Of a DNA stretch of 49,672 nt, positions 40,161 through 49,672 are shown one piece after another. Where the stretch lies: positions 1-49,672 of the forward strand of contig CAVVNQ010000019.1 of the NCBI GenBank assembly GCA_963749705.1. Reading direction: 5' to 3'. The notes under the pieces were generated by a model, which saw only the letters and a list, made by a program, of their open reading frames with translations, ran no database searches and was not told the origin of the DNA. The translations under genes were made by a program, and so were the position numbers. Numbering within the stretch: the stretch's first letter is position 1; the number at the start of each line of letters is the position of its first letter. This DNA comes from an uncultured Chloroflexia bacterium (GTDB lineage Bacteria; Chloroflexota; Limnocylindria; Limnocylindrales; CSP1-4).

Positions 40161-40282
40161 AGTGTAGCCCGCGACCAGCCACGGAGCCCGCGATCCAGTC
40201 GCGACCGCGAGCACGAGCCGCATGAATCCGGGTGTCCGCAACCCAGTCGCAACCGGGTTCGGCCGGGACGGCGGCGTACAAT
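40161..40282. promoter_or_regulatory. Divergent -10 hexamers for FNR (minus, TACACT) and ppdK (plus, TACAAT)
   Basis: agtgta at 40161-40166; TACAAT at 40277-40282. Confidence 0.5.
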
Positions 40283-40360
40283 CGGGGCATTCCACGTGTG
40301 GTGAACCCGCGGGCCGCGCCATGCGCCTGCCCGCCCTTCCAGTCAAGGAGCCCAGCCACG

Positions 40361-43141
40361 ATGGCCACCAGCCCTGCCACGACCCCCGATCGTCCCCACA
40401 CCGCCGACAAGCGCTACATCTACGCCTGGGGCGGCGGCACCGCCGAAGGCCACGGGAAGATGAAGGACCTGCTGGGCGGCAAGGGCGCGGGCCTGGCGGA
40501 GATGACGCTGGCCGGTCTGCCCACCCCGCCCGGCTTCACCATCACCACCGAGGCGTGCAACGACTACTTCGCGGCCGGCAAGCAGCTGCCCGCGGGCCTG
40601 TGGGACGACGTCCTGGGCGCGATGAAGGAGGTCGAGCAGCGATCGGGCAAGGGGTTCGGCGATCCGAAGAACCCGCTGCTCGTCTCCGTCCGCTCGGGGG
40701 CCAAGTTCTCGATGCCGGGCATGATGGACACGGTCCTCAACCTCGGCCTCAACGAGCAGACGCTCCAGGGCCTGGTCGCCCTCACCGGCAACGAGCGCTT
40801 CGGCTGGGATGCGTACCGGCGGTTCATCGCGATGTTCGGGCGGATCGTGATGGGCGTCGACGGCGCCCGGTTCGACGAGCCGCTCGAGGCGGCCAAGGAG
40901 CGCCACGGTCACGACGCGAAGGACACCGACCTGACCGTCGACGACCTCAAGGGCCTGGTCGAGGCATACAAGGGGGTCGTCCGCGAGGACACCGGCCGCG
41001 ACTTCCCGACCGACCCGTACGAGCAGCTGGACCTGGCCATCAAGGCCGTGTTCGCCTCGTGGTTCGGCAAGCGCGCCAACGACTACCGCAACAGCCAGAA
41101 GATCGCCCACGACCTGGGCACCGCGGTCAACGTCGTGACCATGGTGTTCGGCAACATGGGCGACGACTCGGGCACCGGCGTGGCGTTCACCCGCGACCCC
41201 AACACCGGCGAGAAGGTGCTCTATGGCGAGTACCTGACCAATGCCCAGGGCGAGGATGTCGTGGCCGGCATCCGGACCGCGCCCAAGATCGCGCAGATGG
41301 CCGACGAGATGCCGGCCGTGTACGCGGAGTTCCAGCGCATCGGCCAGCAGCTCGAGCAGCACTACCGCAACGTGCAGGACCTCGAGTTCACGATCGAGAA
41401 GGGCCGCCTGTACATGCTCCAGACCCGCGACGCGAAGCGAACCGCCGCGGCGGCCGTGAAGATCGCGGTGGACATGGTCGGCGAGGGCCTGATCTCGAAG
41501 GAGGAGGCCGTCTCGCGGATCGAGCCCGCCCAGGTGGACCAGCTCCTGCGCGCCCAGTTCGACCCCGGTGCCCGCCAGGGCGCGAAGCGGATCGCCAAGG
41601 GCCTCAACGCATCGCCGGGCGCGGCCGTCGGTCGCGCGGTGTTCAACGCGGACGCCGCGGTCGAGTGGGCTGCCCGGGGCGAGAAGGTCGTCCTGGTGCG
41701 GATCGAGACGTCGCCCGACGACTTCCACGGGATGGCCGTCGCCGAGGGCATCCTGACCGCCCGCGGCGGAGCGACCTCGCACGCCGCGGTCGTCGCCCGC
41801 CAGATCGGCAAGCCGTGCGTGGCCGGCTGCGCGGAGCTGGTCGTGGACTACGGCAGCAGCTCGGCGCGCAGCAACCTGTCCGACCTCGCGTTCAAGGAGG
41901 GTGACTGGATCAGCGTCGACGGCTCGACCGGCGAGGTGTTCCTCGATGCGCTGCCGACGGTCGCGGCCAGGTTCGAGGACCAGCCGGAGCTCCAGCAGGT
42001 CCTCGGCTGGGCCGACGGGATCCGGCGCATGGGCGTGTGGGCCAACGCCGACAAGCCCGAGGAGGCCGCCCAGGCGCTGGGCTACGGTGCCCAGGGCATC
42101 GGGCTGTGCCGCACCGAGCACATGTTCCGCGAGGGCGAGCGCCTGGAGATCGTGCGCGGCGCCATCCTCGTGGCCAACGTCGCCACCCGGGCCAAGGCCA
42201 AGGCCGCGGCCGGCGGTTCCCTCGAGGCGGACGAGCAGGCCGCGGTCGCGACGTTCGACGCGGCGATGGCCAAGCTCGAGACGCTCCAGCAGGGCGACTT
42301 CGAGGGCATCTTCAAGGCGATGGACGGCCTGCCGGTCGTCGTTCGCCTGATCGACCCGCCCCTCCACGAGTTCCTGCCCAACCTCGAGGAGCAGCTGGTC
42401 AAGGTGACCCGCGCGGAGGAGCACGGCGGCGCGTCCGACGAGGACAAGGAGCTGCTCGCGACCATCAAGTCGATGCACGAGCAGAACCCGATGCTGGGGC
42501 TCCGCGGCTGCCGGCTGGGGCTGATGATCCCGGACTTCGTCAAGATCCAGACCCGCGCGATCCTCAACGCGCAGATCGCCGTGCGCAAGGCGGGTGGCCA
42601 CCCGATCGCCAAGATCATGATCCCGCTCGTGGGCCACGTGAACGAGCTGTCCGCGACCCGGGCGCTGCTCGAGGCGGAGGCCGAGGCGGTCCGCGAGGCG
42701 GCCGGCGGCATCGAGGTCGACTACAAGTTCGGGACCATGATCGAGGTCCCGCGCGGAGCGCTCACGGCGGACGAGATCGCGAAGCACGCCAGCTTCTTCA
42801 GCTTCGGCACCAACGACCTCACCCAGATGACGTTCGGGTACAGCCGGGATGACGCCGAGGGTGGCTTCCTGCTCAAGTACGTCGAGGACGGCATCCTGCC
42901 GGTCAACCCGTTCCAGACCCTGGACGACGCGGTGGCCGGGCTGATGAAGATCGCCGTCGACAAGGGTCGCAGCGCGCGGCCGGACATCGAGCTCGGCATC
43001 TGCGGCGAGCACGGCGGCGACCCCGAGTCGATCCACAAGTGCGAGCGGATCGGGCTGGACTACGTGTCCTGCTCACCGTTCCGGGTCCCGGTCGCCCGGC
43101 TGGCTGCCGCCCAGGCAGCCCTCGCCGCTCGCCAGGGCTGA
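40361..43141 (+). CDS. ppdK: Pyruvate, phosphate dikinase
   Basis: ATG after AAGGAG; LLGGKGAGLAEM, PLLVSVRSGA..SMPGMMDT, GGATSHAAVVAR, GLCRTEHMF, SFGTNDLTQ, GICGEHGGDP. Confidence 0.98.
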   Translation: MATSPATTPDRPHTADKRYIYAWGGGTAEGHGKMKDLLGGKGAGLAEMTLAGLPTPPGFTITTEACNDYFAAGKQLPAGLWDDVLGAMKEVEQRSGKGFGDPKNPLLVSVRSGAKFSMPGMMDTVLNLGLNEQTLQGLVALTGNERFGWDAYRRFIAMFGRIVMGVDGARFDEPLEAAKERHGHDAKDTDLTVDDLKGLVEAYKGVVREDTGRDFPTDPYEQLDLAIKAVFASWFGKRANDYRNSQKIAHDLGTAVNVVTMVFGNMGDDSGTGVAFTRDPNTGEKVLYGEYLTNAQGEDVVAGIRTAPKIAQMADEMPAVYAEFQRIGQQLEQHYRNVQDLEFTIEKGRLYMLQTRDAKRTAAAAVKIAVDMVGEGLISKEEAVSRIEPAQVDQLLRAQFDPGARQGAKRIAKGLNASPGAAVGRAVFNADAAVEWAARGEKVVLVRIETSPDDFHGMAVAEGILTARGGATSHAAVVARQIGKPCVAGCAELVVDYGSSSARSNLSDLAFKEGDWISVDGSTGEVFLDALPTVAARFEDQPELQQVLGWADGIRRMGVWANADKPEEAAQALGYGAQGIGLCRTEHMFREGERLEIVRGAILVANVATRAKAKAAAGGSLEADEQAAVATFDAAMAKLETLQQGDFEGIFKAMDGLPVVVRLIDPPLHEFLPNLEEQLVKVTRAEEHGGASDEDKELLATIKSMHEQNPMLGLRGCRLGLMIPDFVKIQTRAILNAQIAVRKAGGHPIAKIMIPLVGHVNELSATRALLEAEAEAVREAAGGIEVDYKFGTMIEVPRGALTADEIAKHASFFSFGTNDLTQMTFGYSRDDAEGGFLLKYVEDGILPVNPFQTLDDAVAGLMKIAVDKGRSARPDIELGICGEHGGDPESIHKCERIGLDYVSCSPFRVPVARLAAAQAALAARQG

Positions 43142-43171: not shown

Positions 43172-43201
43172 GAAGCCCGGTGGAGCGATCCACCGGGCTT
43201 C
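43172..43201. terminator. Hairpin terminator between convergent ppdK and downstream gene
   Basis: gaagcccggtgga-GCGA-tccaccgggcttc, perfect 13-bp stem with GNRA loop, pyrimidine-rich tail. Confidence 0.8.
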
Positions 43202-43249: not shown

Positions 43250-44665
43250 TCAGGGAGTCGGCGAGGAGAGGACCCAGTTGACGTTCCAGTCGATGGCGCT
43301 CACGAACACCTGGTCGCGCAGCGACGTGCCGGGCGGGGTCGTGGCCGCCGCGACCGGGTCCATGCCGGACGGCAGCCGGTACAGCAGGTCGAACAGCTGC
43401 TTGGCGAACGCCGCGTCGACGACGAACCGCCGCGTCTCCGATCCATCGGCCGTGTCCACGACCGCGTACACGTAGCCGGGCGGGTTCGCGAGCAGCGGGC
43501 CGAGATCGATCACCGCCCGCTCCGTCGCGCCCTCCTCGCCGACCACCAGCTGGCGCCACGGGAAGTCACGCTGCGCCGCGAGGACGACCGGCAGCGTGTT
43601 CGCGGTGCTGAGCAGCCTTGTGCTGGCGATGCCGGCACCCGAGTACGGGTTCTGGAGCTCGGTCACGATCGTGCGCACGGTGTCCTTGGCCGCGTCGCGG
43701 CAGGATGCGTCGTTGGTGGGACAGCGGATCTCGAGGCCGTTGCCCAGCTGGACCTTGTCGCCGGTGATCGAGAGCGTGAAGTCACCGAGCTCGAGCGGCT
43801 TGGGGCTCGGCGACGGGGTGACCGCAGCCTCGGACGATGTCGCGGACGCCGACGGTGCCTCGGTCGGAGCCCCCGCCGTCGGTGATGCGGTCGCCTGGGC
43901 GATCGGCGACGGGGTCGCGTCCGGCTTGAACGGGCCGGCGCCGAACGCGTACGCGGCCCCGCCAAGCAGGACCGCCGCAAGCACGAGGCCACCGAGCGGC
44001 GGCAGCCAACCGGGCAGCATGGCCCGCTGGCTGAGCGTCGCGCGCAGCCGGATGGGCGCCTGTCGACCGGGTTCCACGATCACCTGGAACGGCCGTGGTC
44101 GCGCGGAGCCGAACGGGAACGGATCGTCGACCCGGACGTCGACGCCGAAGGCAGCCCGCTCCTCAGGGGGGATCACCACGCGGGCCGGCGTCACGGCGAG
44201 CGACAATCGCCGGTCCGGATCGACCGCGGTGACGGCGACCTCGACGGGCGCGTTGCCATGGTTGTCCACCAGCACCTGGTGGTGACCGCGGCGGCTGCCG
44301 CGCGAGGTCTGCGGCGCGACATCGGCCGCGGTGACCGTGAACGGCGTGACCGTCACCCGCCCTTCCTCGACCGTCGACCCACGCGGATCGGCGGCCGGGC
44401 GGACGCGGACGCCAAACGGGAAGGTGCCGGCACGCGGGACGCTCGCCCGCGGCGGTGCGAACACGATCGACGCGGTCTCCTCGGCGCCCGGGAACAGGGA
44501 CAGCGCCCGCGGCTCGACCCGCGCCCAGCCGGCGGCGGGGCCGACGACGTCGATGTCGAAGCGATCGACGATCGACCCGGTGTTGCGGACCCGGATCGTC
44601 GCGGTCGCCTGCGACCCGGGATCGACCGAGAGCTCGGTGGCGGAGAGGGTGGCGATCGCGCTCAT
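43250..44665 (-). CDS. Bitopic membrane protein with two N-terminal Ig-like (COG1470/NEW3-like) domains; resembles Streptomyces CIS-associated 'hydrolytic proteins'
   Basis: ATG 44665; SVDPGSQATATIRVRNTGSIVDRF...W.RVEP..LSLFPG...FAPPR...AG..PF.VRV.P...STVEEG.VTVTPF...VDNHGN...Q..MLP.W then TM, S/T/P linker, unknown C-terminal domain. Confidence 0.7.
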   Translation of the reverse strand: MSAIATLSATELSVDPGSQATATIRVRNTGSIVDRFDIDVVGPAAGWARVEPRALSLFPGAEETASIVFAPPRASVPRAGTFPFGVRVRPAADPRGSTVEEGRVTVTPFTVTAADVAPQTSRGSRRGHHQVLVDNHGNAPVEVAVTAVDPDRRLSLAVTPARVVIPPEERAAFGVDVRVDDPFPFGSARPRPFQVIVEPGRQAPIRLRATLSQRAMLPGWLPPLGGLVLAAVLLGGAAYAFGAGPFKPDATPSPIAQATASPTAGAPTEAPSASATSSEAAVTPSPSPKPLELGDFTLSITGDKVQLGNGLEIRCPTNDASCRDAAKDTVRTIVTELQNPYSGAGIASTRLLSTANTLPVVLAAQRDFPWRQLVVGEEGATERAVIDLGPLLANPPGYVYAVVDTADGSETRRFVVDAAFAKQLFDLLYRLPSGMDPVAAATTPPGTSLRDQVFVSAIDWNVNWVLSSPTP

Positions 44666-44672
44666 CGGGCGC

Positions 44673-44753
44673 AGTCTAATCGGCGCGGCACCTCGAGCGG
44701 AACCCATCTGTCGATGATCGGACAGCGTGCCCCTTGGCGGCCACCGCTAGACT
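44673..44753. promoter_or_regulatory. Divergent promoter pair with central imperfect palindrome
   Basis: TAGACT on minus (44673-44678) and plus (44748-44753); CTGTC-gatgatcg-GACAG at 44708-44725. Confidence 0.55.
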
Positions 44754-44799
44754 GGCGAGCCGGAACACCGGATGGCGCACGGCTGGAGGTAGGGCACGC

Positions 44800-46212
44800 G
44801 TGATCATCTGCAAGGTCTGCGGAACCCAGAACGAGGCGGGGGCCAGCTTCTGTGGATCGTGCGGGAGCTATCTCGAGTGGAGCGGCGAGGCCTACGACCC
44901 GGACGGGTCCGCCAAGTCGACCCCGGAGCCGCCGGCCGGGACGGCCCCCGGGCAGCCTGCGGGGACGGCCCCCGGGCAGTCGGCCGCGACCCCTCCCACC
45001 CCGGCGGGACCGTCGGCGCCGCCCGCGGTCGACCCGACGCCCCCGTCGGCCGCCGCCGGCTCGATCGTGTGCCCCAACTGCGGTGAGGCGAACGACCCGA
45101 CCCGGGTCTTCTGCCGCCGATGCGCGACCGAGCTGGCCCCTCCTTCTGCCGTGGTCGCGCCGGTGGTGGCCGGTCCGCCGCGCCGGCGGTCTGGTCCGCC
45201 CATCGCCATCCTCGGCGGCGTCGCGGCCATCGCCGTGGTGGCGGTCGTCGCCGCCCTGATCGTCCTGCCTCGGGGCACGCCGACGGCGTCGTCGTCGACC
45301 GGGACGAGCGCCCCCTCCACATCGGCGTCGGGTGCACCCGCGGCAAGCGCCGACGGGAGCCCGGTGACGCCCTCGGATTCACCCGTCGCCGCGTCTCCGA
45401 CACCGGCGGCGCCGACCGGGGTGATCGTGTTCTCGGCCGGCAACGACGGCGAGTACAACCTGTTCACCTGGGACGCGGCCACCGGGGAGGTGTCACCGCT
45501 GTTCGAAGCGCCCGGGACCCTGATCGATCCATCGTGGTCGCCGGACCGCTCGAAGGTGGTCTATCGCGACCCGTCCGGGCTGCGCATCATCACGGCCGAT
45601 GGCAAGCCCGCGAGCCCGCCGGACTTCACCCATCACGCGCAGGATCGGCACCCCGCCTGGTCCCCGGACGGGAAGACGATCGTGTTCGCGACCAACCGGT
45701 CGCCGCTGACCAGCCTCGACATCTATGCGCGTCCGGCCGATGACAACCAGGTCACGATCAGGTCGCTGGCCAACAGCAAGGGGGATGACTGGGATCCGGC
45801 CTGGTCGCCCGACAGCACCCGGATCGTGTTCGCGACGCGCCGCCTGGGTGACGCCCGCCTGTTCATGATGAACGCCGATGGCAGCAACGAGAAGGTCATC
45901 GACCTGGGTCCGGGGATCTACGACGATCCGACGATCTCGCCCGACGGACAGTGGCTGGCGTTCACCCGGCGCGACAACAAGAACGCCAACAAGGCGCTGT
46001 ACATCGCGCATCTCGACGGGTCGGCGATGCGTCGGATGACGAACGTCGACGTCAACGAGAACGACATGAGCTGGTCGCCCGACGGCCGGTACCTCGCCGT
46101 GGTTCGCGGCAACGCGGGATCGCGGATCGTGGTGATCGAGGTGGCGACCGGCACCGAGGTGACCAGCTTCGGCATCAACGGGGCCACGGTGTACACGCCG
46201 GACTGGCGTTGA
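44800..46212 (+). CDS. Double zinc-ribbon, single-TM protein with extracytoplasmic TolB/PD40 beta-propeller (CisA-like architecture)
   Basis: GTG after GGAGGT; CKVCGTQN...FCGSCGSYLEW, CPNCGEAN...FCRRCATEL, TM IAILGGVAAIAVVAVVAALIVL, repeated P.WSPDG. Confidence 0.8.
   Translation: MIICKVCGTQNEAGASFCGSCGSYLEWSGEAYDPDGSAKSTPEPPAGTAPGQPAGTAPGQSAATPPTPAGPSAPPAVDPTPPSAAAGSIVCPNCGEANDPTRVFCRRCATELAPPSAVVAPVVAGPPRRRSGPPIAILGGVAAIAVVAVVAALIVLPRGTPTASSSTGTSAPSTSASGAPAASADGSPVTPSDSPVAASPTPAAPTGVIVFSAGNDGEYNLFTWDAATGEVSPLFEAPGTLIDPSWSPDRSKVVYRDPSGLRIITADGKPASPPDFTHHAQDRHPAWSPDGKTIVFATNRSPLTSLDIYARPADDNQVTIRSLANSKGDDWDPAWSPDSTRIVFATRRLGDARLFMMNADGSNEKVIDLGPGIYDDPTISPDGQWLAFTRRDNKNANKALYIAHLDGSAMRRMTNVDVNENDMSWSPDGRYLAVVRGNAGSRIVVIEVATGTEVTSFGINGATVYTPDWR
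44932..44979 (+). repeat. 24-bp in-frame duplication in linker
   Basis: Encodes PAGTAPGQ twice. Confidence 0.8.
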
Positions 46213-46343
46213 CGCACCGTACGATCGGGCTGGTCCGGATAGGGCAGATCGCCACCCTCCGAAGGGGTGGACCCGACCGCCTCCGGGTGGCAGGATAGGC
46301 GTCCGGCCCGCTGACGCGGCAACCGGCACGGGGAGGGCGGCGA

Positions 46344-49322
46344 TTGCGAGAGCCAGGCGCGGGCACGCGTGCCGAGCGTGAACGTGGAGGCGAAGCTCGG
46401 CCGCTCGTCGTCCCGGCGAAGATCCGGGTTCCGACGCCCCAGGCGCTGGCGCGCGAACGCCTTGAGGCACGATTGGCCGAGGCGCCCAACCGACGCCTGA
46501 CGCTCGTGATCGCGCCGGCCGGCTCGGGCAAGACGACCCTCGTCGCGCGCTTCGCCGCAACGTGCGGCATCCCGGTGGGCTGGTACCGGGCGGAGGCCCT
46601 GGACGCCGACGAGGCCTCGTTCGTCCGCCACGTGGAAGCCGCGCTCGCGGCCGTGATCCCCGGCCTGCCGGGTGGTTGGTCGAGCATCGACGAGGCCGCG
46701 CGCAGCCTCGAGGCGTGCGCCCCGTCCGGCCGCACGCTGCTCGTGATCGACGACTTCTACGCGCTCGAGGACACGGTCGCGGAAGCCGCGTTCGGCCGCC
46801 TTGTCGGCTATGCGCCGCCGTGGCTGTCGATCATCGTCGCCTCGAGGGTGGCGCCCGGCGTGAACCTGACCCGGCTCCGGGTCGCGGGCGAGCTGCTGGA
46901 GCTCGGCGCCGACGACCTGCGGTTCCGTGCGTGGGAGGTGGAGCAGCTGTTCCGCGACGTCTACCACGACCCGGTGCTGCCGGGCGATCTCGCGGTGCTG
47001 GCACGGCGGACGGAGGGCTGGGCCGCGGGGCTCCAGCTGTACCACCTGGCCACGCGGGGAAAGTCGGTCGAGGAGCGGCGCCGGGTCCTGACCGGGGCCG
47101 GCTCGAGCGTCCGCCTCGTCCGCGAGTACCTGGCCAGCAACGTGCTCTCCGGGCTGCCGGAGGACCTTCGGACGTTCCTGCTCGACACGTGCGTGCTCGG
47201 CCGCCTGTCAGGCCCGCTGTGCGACACGCTCCGCGGCAGCCGCGGCAGTGCCGCGATGCTCGAGGAGCTCGCACGTCGCGGCGTGTTCACCGTGCCCGTC
47301 GAGGACGAGGACGACGCCTACCGCTATCACGCGGTGCTGCGGCAGTACCTGGACCGGATCCTCGTCGACGAGGTCGGCGAGGCGAGCGCCCGGGACCGGC
47401 ACGCGGCCGCCGGCCGGCTGCTCGAGGACGCGGGCGCGCTCCCCGATGCCCTGCGCGCGTTCTGTCGCGCCGAGGACTGGGACGCCGTGCGACGCCTGCT
47501 GGGCGGGCAGGGCGAGCGCCTGGTGGCGAGCGACGGAGGATCATGGATCGAGGCGCTGCCGCCGGCGATCGAGCGCCATGACCCGTGGGTGGCGCTCGCG
47601 GCCGCGAGGCGTGCCCGCAACGACGGGCGCTGGACGGCGGCGATGGACGCCTACGCCCGCGCGGCCACGGGGTTCGGGGCCGCGCCGGCCGCGGACGTCG
47701 CGCGCCGGGAGCGGCGGGCGCTGGCCACCTGGCTCGACCCGGCGGCGATCCAGCCAGCGACCGTGGCCGGCCTGCTGCGCGGCGGGCTGACCCGGGAGCC
47801 CGCGGCCGCGGCCCGCGAGGCGTCCCGCCTGGACGACCGGGCCGTTCCCGTCGTTCGCGGCCTGCTTGCCCTGGCTGCCGGCGAGGTGCTGAGCGCTCGA
47901 CGGCAGCTCGTCGAGGCGGCGAGCTCCGGCGAGGCGGGCCCCATCCTCAGCGCGGGGGCGCGGCTGGGCGCCGCCGTGGCCGCGGCGCTTGCCGGCGACC
48001 GGGTCGATCCGCGCGAGATCGACCGGGCCGTCGATGAGGCAGAGCGAGCCGGCGTGCCATGGCTGGCGCGGCTCGGTCGCGCGATCGGAACCCAGCTCGG
48101 TGCCGAGCCTGATGACGCCGCCGCCGGGAACGGTCGATCCCCGCACGGCTCGATGGCGGACGATCCATGGGGTGCCGCCCTGGTCGCGCTCGCGGCGGCC
48201 TGGTCCGACGACGCCGATCCAGAGGAGCGCCTGCTGGCCGCGGACACCGCGTCGTCGGCATTCCGGCGGCTGGGCTCGGGCGTGCTCGAGGCGTGGGCCC
48301 GCGGCCTGGCTGCCGTTGCGTTCGCCGAGTCCGGCGCACCCGACGCGAAGGACAGCGCGCTGGCGGCGGAGAGCCTCGGACGGGCCACGGGCACGCCCGC
48401 CGCCCGGCTGCTCGCCTACGCGGCGATCGCGGGTGCGGATCCGGAGCGCCGGGCCGAGTTCGCGCTGCTCGCGGACACCCTGGCCTCGGACATCGGTCTG
48501 GTCGTCCAGCGCGTGGCGGCCCCCGGCGAGCATCTTCCGGCTGTCGACGCGGCCGATGGTGGTTCGGCCGGGACGCGCGCAGGCCCGGGCACGATCCGCG
48601 TCCGGGCGTTCGGCGGGTTCGGGCTGGAGGTGGACGGCCGCCGGGTCTCGCTCGACGGCGCCAAGCCGCGGGTTCGCGCGCTGCTGCGGCTGCTCGCCAT
48701 GCGCGGCGGCGCGCCGGTCCATCGCGACGTGATCCAGGAGGCGCTGTGGCCCGAGGCCGATGCAGCGGCCGGTTCGCGCAGCCTCCACGTGGCCGTGTCC
48801 GCCCTGCGGCGCCTGCTCGACGATGTCGCCGCGCCGTACGGTGGCCGGCTGGTGGCCCGCGACGGCGACGCCTACCGGCTCGATGTCCCGCCGGAGGAGA
48901 TCGACGTCCGCGCGTTCGATCGCGCGATCGCCGAGGGTCGCGCGGCCCGGGCCCGGAACCAGGGCTCCGCGGCTGCGTTCGGGCGCGCGCTCGAGCTCTA
49001 TGCGGGCGACCTGTTGCCCGAGGACGGTCCGGCCGATTGGGTACAGGACGACCGGGATCGATACCGGCTCCAGGTCCTCGAAGCCTGCCAGGCGCTGGCG
49101 GAGGAGGCGCTGCTCGGGGGCGACTACTCGGAGGCCGTTCGAGCGTGCAGGTTCGGTCTGGCCGTCGATCGCTATCAGGACGCCCTGTGGCGCGTGCTGA
49201 TCGAGGCCCGCGACCGGGCGGGCGATGCCGGCGCCGCTGCGCGTGACCGGCAGGACTATGCGCAGGTGCTCGAGGGCCTCGGGGTCAAGGGTCCCGCCGC
49301 GATCGCCTTCGGCACCAACTGA
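46344..49322 (+). CDS. MalT-like STAND ATPase fused to C-terminal winged-helix and BTAD (SARP-type) activator domain
   Basis: TTG after GGAGG; Walker A APAGSGKTT, Walker B LVIDDF, DLRF, TEGWAAGLQL, YRYHAVLR; C-terminal VRAFGGF.LEVDG, LWPE, SLHVAVSALRRLL, LELYAGDLL..W. Confidence 0.9.
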   Translation: MREPGAGTRAERERGGEARPLVVPAKIRVPTPQALARERLEARLAEAPNRRLTLVIAPAGSGKTTLVARFAATCGIPVGWYRAEALDADEASFVRHVEAALAAVIPGLPGGWSSIDEAARSLEACAPSGRTLLVIDDFYALEDTVAEAAFGRLVGYAPPWLSIIVASRVAPGVNLTRLRVAGELLELGADDLRFRAWEVEQLFRDVYHDPVLPGDLAVLARRTEGWAAGLQLYHLATRGKSVEERRRVLTGAGSSVRLVREYLASNVLSGLPEDLRTFLLDTCVLGRLSGPLCDTLRGSRGSAAMLEELARRGVFTVPVEDEDDAYRYHAVLRQYLDRILVDEVGEASARDRHAAAGRLLEDAGALPDALRAFCRAEDWDAVRRLLGGQGERLVASDGGSWIEALPPAIERHDPWVALAAARRARNDGRWTAAMDAYARAATGFGAAPAADVARRERRALATWLDPAAIQPATVAGLLRGGLTREPAAAAREASRLDDRAVPVVRGLLALAAGEVLSARRQLVEAASSGEAGPILSAGARLGAAVAAALAGDRVDPREIDRAVDEAERAGVPWLARLGRAIGTQLGAEPDDAAAGNGRSPHGSMADDPWGAALVALAAAWSDDADPEERLLAADTASSAFRRLGSGVLEAWARGLAAVAFAESGAPDAKDSALAAESLGRATGTPAARLLAYAAIAGADPERRAEFALLADTLASDIGLVVQRVAAPGEHLPAVDAADGGSAGTRAGPGTIRVRAFGGFGLEVDGRRVSLDGAKPRVRALLRLLAMRGGAPVHRDVIQEALWPEADAAAGSRSLHVAVSALRRLLDDVAAPYGGRLVARDGDAYRLDVPPEEIDVRAFDRAIAEGRAARARNQGSAAAFGRALELYAGDLLPEDGPADWVQDDRDRYRLQVLEACQALAEEALLGGDYSEAVRACRFGLAVDRYQDALWRVLIEARDRAGDAGAAARDRQDYAQVLEGLGVKGPAAIAFGTN

Positions 49323-49672
49323 CGGTCGCTCCGGCGACCTGGCCGCGGGGACGCCTCGGGCGCCTCGGGCGCCTCGGCTCAGCCGCCTCGTCCCGGCTAC
49401 CACGCGGCGCCTCGTCGCGTCGGCCGGCCACCCCGCCGCGTCCGCCACGTGGGCTGGCAGGCCACGATCTCGGGCCGAGGTCGCAACGGGGGCGTCGTCG
49501 GACGGCATTCGTGGCGCCGTGGACCTCGAAAGCTCCGGCGAGACCGGGAATGGGCTGATCTGCGCCCCGCGACGGCGATGTCGTGGCCTGTGGCGCCACG
49601 GCCGAGGCGAAGAGGAGCGCCGTGCCTCGGTCTTCGGCCGTGTCGTCCGCAATGGCAGCCGGCGAACCGCGT

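Follow-up and report, generated by a model that had tools for sequence, protein, structure and literature searches.

How a phage-tail-like machine that is free in the cytoplasm finds the membrane, and what triggers its firing, is the key issue for contractile injection systems (CIS) of the Streptomyces type. Streptomyces uses such a machine to kill its own cells. To our knowledge, CisA is the only known factor in the membrane finding and firing of these systems, and it has been described as restricted to actinomycetes and lacking in Roseiflexus. The issue is raised in a new setting by the right end of a 49,672-nt stretch of DNA from an uncultured Chloroflexia bacterium of the Limnocylindrales (contig CAVVNQ010000019.1; the whole stretch is called the window hereafter), a member of a little-studied lineage of soil and freshwater Chloroflexota. 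Here, three genes, termed A, B and C, follow ppdK, and an original prediction made from the window alone had taken them for the probable edge of a CIS locus. We find with high confidence that the A-B-C block is the left edge of an island of about 45 kb carrying one Streptomyces-type (lineage IId) CIS.

The three-gene block borders a contractile injection island

The window is contig C19 of genome G000 (22 contigs, 3.6 Mb, 88% complete) and, as the original prediction had correctly stated, no structural CIS gene is visible in it. Its last 1918 nt (47755-49672) correspond to C20:1580-3497 of a second contig, with 99.74% identity and 5 mismatches; a window-equivalent coordinate is the C20 coordinate plus 46175. 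The join of C19 and C20 is corroborated by two genomes of the same genus, where a single contig carries ppdK-A-B-C-...-cis12...sheath. C20 in turn overlaps, at its right end (C20:21643-28260), with C15:1773-8389 at 99.7% identity.

Sheath, tube, VgrG, baseplate, DUF4255, AAA ATPase and DUF4157 genes had been expected past the right end of the window, and all of them are on C20. More specifically, open reading frames (ORFs) and Pfam matches above their cut-offs place the CIS genes at window-equivalent 51880-65464 (C20:5705-19289), starting about 2 kb beyond the window end, with the structural genes at C20:5705-16342 (Table 1). One cluster holds sheath, tube, gp25, Baseplate_J, P2_I wedge and VgrG. 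The hallmarks of extracellular CIS (eCIS), namely a Pvc16_N/DUF4255 cap, an AAA+ ATPase and DUF4157/eCIS_core, are all present as well. Sheath and Pvc16_N gave one match each in the genome.

Among solved structures, Streptomyces CIS proteins are the closest relatives of both sheath and Cis11. The sheath is best matched by 8bky/9gtp (E 3.5e-201, residues 23-520), and Cis11 matches only 9gtp_1K, end to end (E 1.9e-236, 1-647/1-649). The entries 8bky and 9gtp come from the work of Casu 2023 and Casu 2025 (PMC12237407) on the Streptomyces CIS. The assignment to subtype IId follows the published label and not a tree of ours.

Compared with CIS-Sc (SCO4242-4263; 8BKY, 8BL4, 9GTP, 9GTS), the structural gene set is the same and its order similar. 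Both share the arrangement cis12-cis11-cis9-cis8-cis7-tube-TMP-tube-sheath (TMP, tape-measure protein), divergent from cis16-cis15, and in both a CisA-type gene occupies the fibre slot while Sco4256-type genes stand beside the cluster. The island differs from CIS-Sc in its Limnocylindrales-like host, in a sheath about 56-62% identical to those of named Streptomyces loci, and in its three CisA-like genes, two Sco4256-like genes, a regulator with SARP output and a PAAR gene that was not found.

On the left, the self-contained three-gene block follows ppdK as had been described, with all of its elements in place. The hairpin between ppdK and gene A has a folding energy of -35.6 kcal/mol (z = -6.4; 0/200 shuffles fold equally well) and forms a terminator-like border of the island. 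A consensus terminator/promoter scan gave no call between ppdK and A or between A and B, and it missed the hairpin because a T tail is lacking. The "strong terminator" described earlier is therefore better called a strong hairpin.

A CisA orthologue and further paralogues in the island

The gene in the cisA slot, X1, encodes, in this order, acidic (PE)n repeats with a Pro-rich stretch (about 230 residues), a zinc (Zn) ribbon, a basic PWWRR motif, a transmembrane (TM) segment and a C-terminal domain of about 130 residues that ends in ...ELEFF. A first Zn ribbon (VIVCGNCG...FCGNCGQFLEW) lies just upstream in another frame, which makes X1 appear frameshifted. As the overlapping contig ends differ at 0.3% of positions, this frameshift may be a draft error; the X1 orthologue in the nearest named metagenome-assembled genome (MAG) is a single 972-aa ORF with both ribbons.

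Comparators were drawn from a sheath-alignment scan of named genomes, in which the best 80 of 604 relatives were kept. Among these best 80, sheath identity amounts to 73-86% for Chloroflexia/Limnocylindrales MAGs and 56-71% for Actinomycetota, including 26 Streptomyces loci. One locus labelled as a Verrucomicrobiia MAG (L027) has a sheath 79% identical and the cis order of the Limnocylindrales loci; its contig is probably mis-binned or recently transferred. The ORF after cis12 opens with a ribbon like the first Zn ribbon (ZnR1) of gene B, within 400 nt, in 12/20 named loci (Streptomyces, 4/12), the 20 being those with cis12 plus at least 150 nt downstream. Three Streptomyces loci were extended. 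The protein at the cisA position of the Streptomyces locus L105 (416 aa) has the order ZnR1, disordered region, second ribbon (ZnR2), PWWRR, TM and C-terminal domain, and its C-terminal domain is 38% identical to that of X1 (E 2e-18). Sco4242 (CisA), the membrane protein that CIS-Sc needs in order to fire (Casu 2025), is described as having an unstructured cytoplasmic N-terminus, a Cys-rich, probably Zn-binding segment before the TM and a C-terminal domain of about 150 residues, its gene lying downstream of the baseplate genes (PMC10020575). Judged by position and sequence, X1 is a CisA orthologue.

The island holds three CisA-like genes (X1, B2 and B) and two Sco4256-like genes (A and A2). 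B2, a double-Zn-ribbon/TM/discoidin-like protein, and A2, a paralogue of A with 39% identity over N-domain and TM and a different C-terminus, lie on the other flank of the cluster. Adjoining A2 is a gene for a secreted PD40 protein (PD40_711, C20:24465-26600) with a domain in its last 100 residues or so. This tail recurs, 34-43% identical, in CIS loci of Streptomyces and Stackebrandtia (L067, L079, L103 and L068), where short ORFs close to the AAA ATPase gene encode it.

The gene content also bears on an alternative, namely that the machine is an extracellular CIS, released by lysis and injecting other cells, with A-type proteins as cargo toxins and the Zn-ribbon/TM proteins serving assembly, release or immunity. 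Pvc16_N, the AAA ATPase and eCIS_core/DUF4157 form the classical eCIS set, Vladimirov et al. at first interpreted Sco4242 as a fibre and Sco4256 as a toxin (PMC10020575), and as to localisation the lineage is known here from genes alone. However, the closest characterised machines, those of Streptomyces and of Roseiflexus/Deinococcota, are reported to be seen only inside cells. No tail-fibre gene was found in the cluster, because the slot is taken by the CisA orthologue X1, and TM-anchored proteins would make awkward tube cargo. We consider an extracellular weapon unlikely and return to a Streptomyces-type cytoplasmic machine.

Gene B carries the CisA cytoplasmic module and a TolB-like propeller

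The likely start of gene B is GTG 44800, 10 nt after a conserved GGAGG (44785-44789). The protein contains eight Cys in two CxxC...CxxC ribbons, all eight invariant in six orthologues, and one strongly hydrophobic segment at about residues 153-184. It thereby shows the cytoplasmic module of CisA, two Zn ribbons before a single TM, with a presumed N-in topology. The ectodomain is a PD40 propeller. Scored against the TolB equivalog TIGR02800, B reaches 116.1 bits (cut-off 343.15); as far as its sequence tells, B resembles TolB in propeller fold only.

Against the L105 protein, B is 36% identical over 70 aa in ZnR1 (E 1e-8) and 48% over 27 aa in ZnR2. No similarity between the two was found outside these ribbons, so the C-terminal domain of CisA is not recovered in B. 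Profile alignment (hhalign) of six B orthologues with five cisA-position proteins yielded 99.4% (E 4e-21, 34 columns). Within the island, B is 38% identical to its paralogue B2 over 145 aa (E 1e-18). PD40_711 was considered as the source of the B propeller and set aside, the similarity being weak (29% identity, E 8e-4).

Overall, B and CisA have in common an N-terminal ribbon FCxxCGxxLxW, a disordered linker, a second ribbon before the TM and an outward C-terminal domain. Where CisA has a discoidin/NADase_transloc-like domain of about 150 residues, B has a PD40 propeller, and the B gene lies beyond the regulator. The original prediction had typed B as CisA (SCO4242); its cytoplasmic Zn-ribbon module bears this out, whereas the C-terminal domain and the gene position, which belongs to X1, do not, and orthology of B with CisA was ruled out on these two grounds. 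Because its ectodomain is a propeller, we describe B as a CisA-like paralogue, very probably a CisA-family double-Zn-ribbon-TM module in which a TolB-like propeller replaces the discoidin-like ectodomain.

For A and B alike, an N-in/C-out topology is predicted on four grounds: both proteins lack a signal peptide, the Zn ribbons of B belong in the cytoplasm, Pro/Ser/Thr-rich linkers follow the TM segments, and the only Cys pair of A lies in its outer domain.

The divergent spacer between the two genes was aligned across 7 orthologous intergenic regions. The AGTCTA that adjoins the A start is invariant in 7/7 spacers, and the second TAGACT is present in 3/7, all from same-genus genomes. The sequence pattern suggests that the TAGACT boxes act as promoter elements and, as one of them sits 7 nt from the ATG of A, that the A transcript may be leaderless. 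SARP-type direct repeats were sought by eye in this alignment and none were evident.

Gene A belongs to the Sco4256-58 family

The likely start of gene A is M15 (44665), since residue 1 of nearly all 150 listed representatives aligns with query residue 15. A Pfam scan reported a weak-to-moderate Ig-like match, Cep192_D3 (E 1.2e-09), with ASH under its cut-off. When residues 1-241 were searched against 1.84 billion representatives, 4623 relatives were found at E <= 0.001 and 468 at E <= 1e-30. The closest named relatives of A are labelled 'Candidatus Limnocylindrales bacterium'. An AlphaFold2 model based on 41 full-length orthologues (mean predicted local distance difference test score, pLDDT, 82.9) consists of two beta-sandwiches (1-213), a TM helix (221-240), a disordered linker (246-285) and a folded alpha/beta C-terminal domain; the hydropathy peak is at 238-256. 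Foldseek groups the N-terminal tandem with ASH/PapD-like immunoglobulin (Ig) domains; its matches include the FimC chaperone (3bwu_C, E 4.7e-09), the SPD-2 domain of CEP192 (7ptb, E 1.7e-10) and axonemal proteins of the hydin type.

The C-terminal domain, in which the only two Cys of A are invariant across the 41 orthologues, is modelled with a pLDDT of 87.9 and a predicted template modelling score (pTM) of 0.85. Foldseek against the PDB returned 0 matches at E <= 0.001 (best 0.16), and a search of the ESM Atlas gave no usable match. VIA-align against 48,161 chains returned one chain at Z >= 5, YycH (2fgt_A, Z 5.9, root-mean-square deviation 3.9, 119 aligned), a Z below the typical best of unmatched models. 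Assignment of a named fold was dropped on account of this low Z and the empty PDB search.

The proteins Sco4256-58 are described as sharing a common N-domain that resembles pilus chaperones (HHpred), one TM and a variable C-terminus, and homologues of Sco4256 in Chloroflexi were already noted in 2023 (PMC10020575). Gene A shows the same build, with one TM after the N-domain and a C-terminus that varies, as A and A2 diverge past the TM. It is 40% identical to a protein of a Streptomyces CIS locus (L112) over residues 14-276 (E 9e-41). Among the best 80 loci, N-domain matches within 10 kb of the sheath (tblastn, E < 1e-10) occur in 30, including 16/26 Streptomyces loci and only 1/8 Chloroflexota loci. 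In most of the latter, the contig is short or A2 lies further than 10 kb away, G125 being an example. The N-domain, the single TM, the variable C-terminal domain and the IId locus are thus common to A and Sco4256-58; in A, the C-terminal domain differs from theirs, being no ricin-type lectin and not recognisable as a toxin. The resemblance to the SCO4256-4258 type that had been proposed for A is upheld by this N-domain homology to Streptomyces CIS-locus proteins and by the shared published architecture. We are highly confident in placing A in the Sco4256-58 family, with a tandem Ig N-domain, one TM and a variable C-terminal domain.

What A-type proteins do can be read in two ways. Loss of Sco4256-58 in S. 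coelicolor empties the tube lumen, the proteins are reported to be required there for cell death and are toxic in E. coli, and the authors read them as effectors (PMC10066040). Alternatively, A-type proteins would be membrane receptors or co-adaptors, with A and B, and A2 and B2, forming docking or trigger sites. A- and B-type genes are direct or near neighbours on either flank of the cluster, in relatives and in the actinomycete locus L068; the A family conserves its cytoplasmic Ig tandem, which resembles a binding module; and A and B homologues share metagenome contigs in 4 cases (3830, 8678, 18921 and 19873 nt, sizes that match). Set against this are the Streptomyces findings and the lack of direct evidence here for contact between A and B. 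Complex prediction of the B propeller (205-473) with the A C-terminal domain scored 0.00 in two runs, made without controls, and speaks neither for nor against such a contact. We give the receptor role a small but appreciable chance and continue with A-type proteins as putative effectors.

Gene C is the conserved regulator of the island

A large STAND ATPase activator had been proposed for gene C, and its domains agree with this, consisting of a MalT-like NTPase, a helical middle region with repeats and a C-terminal SARP output. The NTPase matches NF003420 with E 4.9e-57 and 193.6 bits, under the cut-off of 537. Both SARP domains exceed their cut-offs, Trans_reg_C with 29.1 bits (cut-off 26.2) and BTAD with 43 bits (cut-off 22.1). 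The C-terminal GerE/LuxR helix-turn-helix (HTH) expected of MalT/LAL proteins was not found in C by Pfam/NCBIfam scans.

In MalT/LAL proteins a LuxR HTH forms the C-terminus, and in AfsR-type proteins the SARP domain comes first. C is like the LAL/MalT and AfsR/SARP STAND regulators in being a large, NTPase-containing, cluster-situated activator, and it shares the MalT-like N-terminal 370 residues with LAL/MalT; it differs from these in ending with a SARP winged helix and BTAD.

Orthologues of C (45-63% identity) flank the CIS in G038, G062, G119, G125, G304, G338, G336, G261, G285 and G240, that is, in 10/10 relatives with that flank available. C is, with high confidence, the conserved regulator of the island. 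By its description, the cluster regulator sco4263 named in Vladimirov 2023 is a similar case.

A and B form an optional cassette next to a constant regulator

A sample of 121 genomes of the class was searched for A-family genes and Pvc16_N. The former were found in 7/121 and the latter in 8/121, all from family f1, and all seven A-positive genomes are Pvc16_N-positive. In six of these, the two lie 4-15 kb apart on the same contig; the seventh is a 180-contig assembly. The Pvc16_N-positive genome G092 has a more distant CIS and gave no A match. In five relatives, tblastn recovered the order B2-PD40-A2-GerE-DUF4157-AAA-cis16 <> sheath...cis12-X1-C (opposite strand), with C seen in 3/5, those whose contigs reach that side.

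The C-terminal domain of A was found in 9/251 family genomes, G000 included, and the neighbourhoods of six of the eight foreign matches were covered (all but G177 and G321). All six, from three genera, have the arrangement A(-)<>B(+)-C(+) followed by cis12...sheath: G304 and G338 (same genus), G336 and G261 (genus g8), and G285 and G240 (genus g6). In 4/6, ppdK adjoins A, and in 5/6 a ZnR1 or X1 match lies between C and cis12. Two genes in these genomes, ppdK in G261 (C2:1057841-1060490) and C in G336 (C6:872141-875242), are split over several frames, which is probably due to draft quality rather than gene decay as the genomes are 83% complete. The original prediction had named the neighbourhoods of homologues as a check, and A/B are linked to the CIS in all six of these genomes.

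What lies between ppdK and C varies. Here it is A and B; in G062 (same genus) the slot is empty, and C directly adjoins ppdK and an FNR gene; in the nearest named Chloroflexia MAG (G125), the slot is taken by a gene (L108:8931-11957) for a 1008-aa protein, called a PAS/EAL signalling protein by eye. A and B are therefore not required by the machine, as CIS-positive relatives do without them. From the recurrent synteny it follows that A, B and C are a real block, with C constant and A/B an optional border cassette; very probably, A and B constitute a divergently transcribed cassette that always stands between C and the island border.

This dispensability would also fit a CIS-independent envelope module, a TolB-like sensor with its partner, that merely occupies the variable ppdK-C slot, and both PD40 propellers and Zn ribbons are common modules. 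Yet all 7 A-family genomes among the 121 searched have Pvc16_N, full-length A/B lie at the CIS edge in 6/6 genomes from three genera, and A and B have paralogues on the other flank as well as N-modules that match proteins inside Streptomyces CIS clusters. An independent module is very unlikely, and a cassette that belongs to the CIS island is preferred.

Across the phylum, sheath relatives (E <= 1e-20) were found in 61/301 sampled Chloroflexota genomes, a tally that includes G544. When a ZnR2-TM-C-terminal domain query from X1 was applied to five further CIS-bearing Chloroflexota genomes, one gave a match, G356, about 10 kb from a sheath that is 77% identical. The query was not found in G603, G584, G441 and G547, whose sheaths are 56, 58, 58 and 38% identical. 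The lack of a match to this query in the four genomes with distant sheaths fits the remark of Gaisin et al. 2026 (ISME J) that Roseiflexus has no close cisA homologue. The cytoplasmic CIS of Roseiflexus and other Chloroflexota-Deinococcota treated there is alike in its Chloroflexota host, its IId assignment and its proposed cytoplasmic action, and unlike the present locus, which has a clear cisA homologue.

Neighbouring genes

Past eCIS_core, C20 continues with an fn3x3-CWB2 protein, a GerE regulator, A2, the secreted PD40 protein and B2. The fn3x3 and CWB2 gene (C20:20292-22286, C15:1-2400) contains near-identical repeats of about 270 nt, and it is inside these repeats that the C20/C15 assembly breaks. 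C19, C20 and C15 were left unmerged despite end-to-end overlaps at 99.7% identity; the unmerged overlaps are probably assembly artefacts of repeat-rich ends. C20:1-1575, a tandem 97% near-copy of C20:1595-3119, a stretch inside gene C, is likewise probably a contig-end artefact.

The GerE/LuxR-type regulator (250 aa, C20:22413-23165) adjoins the A2-type gene and is kept at E < 1e-10 in 37/80 named CIS loci, many of them from Streptomyces. It represents a second regulator, whose conservation is wider than that of C. On the far side of B2 and an SH3-like ORF, C15:9121-17564 encodes a 635-aa ORF without Pfam match, an XRE-type HTH protein and a 1861-aa GAF-histidine kinase, which may belong to the island; the next genes, for an ammonium transporter and a Na/H exchanger, are housekeeping genes.

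Table 1. Features of the three-gene block and of the adjacent CIS cluster (positions in the window unless preceded by C20)
Feature	Position	Strand	Remarks
ppdK	40232-43141	+	PEP-utilizers_C E 5.5e-79; PPDK_N E 8.2e-51
Hairpin	43172..43201	.	perfect 13-bp, G+C-rich; between convergent ppdK and gene A
Gene A	43250..44665	-	471 aa from M15; longest ORF reaches 44707
Gene A C-terminal domain	about 43253-43810	-	two invariant Cys; no clear PDB match
Gene A TM helix	about 43946-44005	-	followed by Pro/Ser/Thr/Ala linker
Gene A tandem PapD/ASH-like Ig domains	about 44027-44665	-	AlphaFold model and Foldseek
A/B control region	44666..44799	.	divergent; inverted TAGACT boxes and GGAGG
TAGACT box 1	44673-44678	-	7 nt from ATG of A
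TAGACT box 2	44748-44753	+	A/B spacer
Gene B	44800..46212	+	470 aa from GTG 44800; longest ORF starts 44734
Gene B ZnR1	44809-44862	+	Cys ribbon
Gene B ZnR2	45070-45123	+	Cys ribbon
Gene B TM	about 45190-45285	+	followed by Ser/Pro/Thr linker
Gene B TolB-like PD40 propeller	about 45415-46209	+	PD40 E 3.6e-29
Gene C	46344..49322	+	992 aa; cluster-situated regulator
Gene C MalT-like STAND NTPase	about 46410-47522	+	residues 23-393; NF003420
Gene C winged helix (Trans_reg_C)	about 48666-48827	+	residues 775-828
Gene C BTAD	about 48900-49283	+	residues 853-980
C/X1 spacer	49323..49672	.	convergent; X1 stop codon begins at last base of window (C20:3497 = 49672)
X1	C20:3497-5380	-	directly after cis12, cisA slot; with upstream ZnR1 region to C20:5700 (49672-51875)
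Tail_P2_I	C20:5705-6328	-	Pfam
Baseplate_J	C20:6328-8274	-	Pfam
gp25	C20:8277-8675	-	Pfam
VgrG	C20:8744-10432	-	Pfam
CIS_tube+LysM	C20:10442-11179	-	Pfam
gp19	C20:11190-11675	-	Pfam
734-aa ORF, tape-measure position	C20, between gp19 genes	-	no Pfam match
170-aa ORF	C20, after 734-aa ORF	-	
gp19 tube	C20:14294-14728	-	Pfam
Sheath	C20:14765-16342	-	Pfam
Pvc16_N/DUF4255	C20, to 17178	divergent from sheath	E 2.9e-38
WHD+AAA	C20:17175-19289	divergent from sheath	Pfam
eCIS_core/DUF4157	C20, to 20149	divergent from sheath	E 5.8e-32

Proposed working of the system

By analogy with Streptomyces (Casu 2023, Casu 2025, Vladimirov 2023), the island may encode a membrane-tethered CIS that works as follows. 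Gene C, a signal-sensing switch dependent on nucleoside triphosphates, would turn on the CIS operons and probably the A/B pair too. The particles would assemble free in the cytoplasm, where the Zn-ribbon arms of X1, B and B2 could reach them and bring the baseplate to the membrane. Cis11 is the contact predicted for Streptomyces; the pairing of CisA with Cis11 was predicted in silico and an attempt to confirm it failed (Casu 2025, PMC12237407). Each adaptor ectodomain, with the propeller of B as an outward input, would gate recruitment by a different envelope cue, and firing together with the A-type membrane proteins would kill the producer cell. We put this mechanism, taken as a whole, at somewhat less than an even chance.

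Several points weigh against the proposal. The likeness of B to cisA-position proteins spans only about 34-70 Zn-ribbon residues, and this module is short and common. Moreover, B stands outside the cisA slot and not beside the baseplate genes, with X1 and C between it and cis12. The Streptomyces comparators are other CIS loci, matched to the published descriptions of Sco4242 and Sco4256, and localisation, firing, toxicity and regulation are all taken by analogy. A and B are absent from the CIS-positive genomes G062, G038, G119 and G125. PAAR, one of the families that the original prediction had listed for annotation, was not found in the genome, which is 88% complete. Furthermore, X1 has a frame break between ZnR1 and the (PE)n spacer, near C20:5400-5440, and the C19-C20 join consists of a 1.9-kb overlap plus synteny in relatives in an assembly that is not closed. 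Even so, we regard the reading in its entirety as likely, the part that can be read from the locus itself being the firmer and the mechanism the more tentative.

Significance

The block represents a known kind of system with changed accessory genes, its function being assigned by analogy. A lineage IId CIS in Chloroflexota, Sco4256 homologues in Chloroflexi, and the roles of CisA and Sco4256-58 in Streptomyces are already in print. New are, on the evidence of sequence, a clear CisA orthologue in a Limnocylindrales lineage, an island with three CisA-like genes that differ in their ectodomains, a recurrent optional A/B cassette, and a MalT-like regulator with SARP output as the constant regulator of the island. 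Literature searches, which did not cover supplementary data, found no work linking Limnocylindria with contractile injection and none that treats Zn ribbons and transmembrane proteins together with contractile injection. Since MAGs are the main source of knowledge on the lineage, the locus is of limited practical value.

For the CisA family, the locus extends its range into Chloroflexota and points to the cytoplasmic Zn-ribbon arm as the conserved part. The outer domain appears swappable, and here includes a TolB-like propeller, as would be expected of a sensor. More speculatively, and with a low though appreciable probability, one cytoplasmic machine might be wired to several trigger channels, in which X1, B2 and B provide the same arm with different extracytoplasmic sensors, A/B and A2/B2 are cognate pairs, and the cassettes are exchangeable. 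The sensors would then be discoidin-like (X1), discoidin-like with a secreted propeller (B2) and a fused TolB-like propeller (B). If true, the optional A/B cassette would add a death-inducing input to a suicide machine and be exchanged like effector/immunity modules. The natural paired variants A/B and A2/B2, together with a conserved regulator, offer testable material for the question of how such a machine finds the membrane and what makes it fire.

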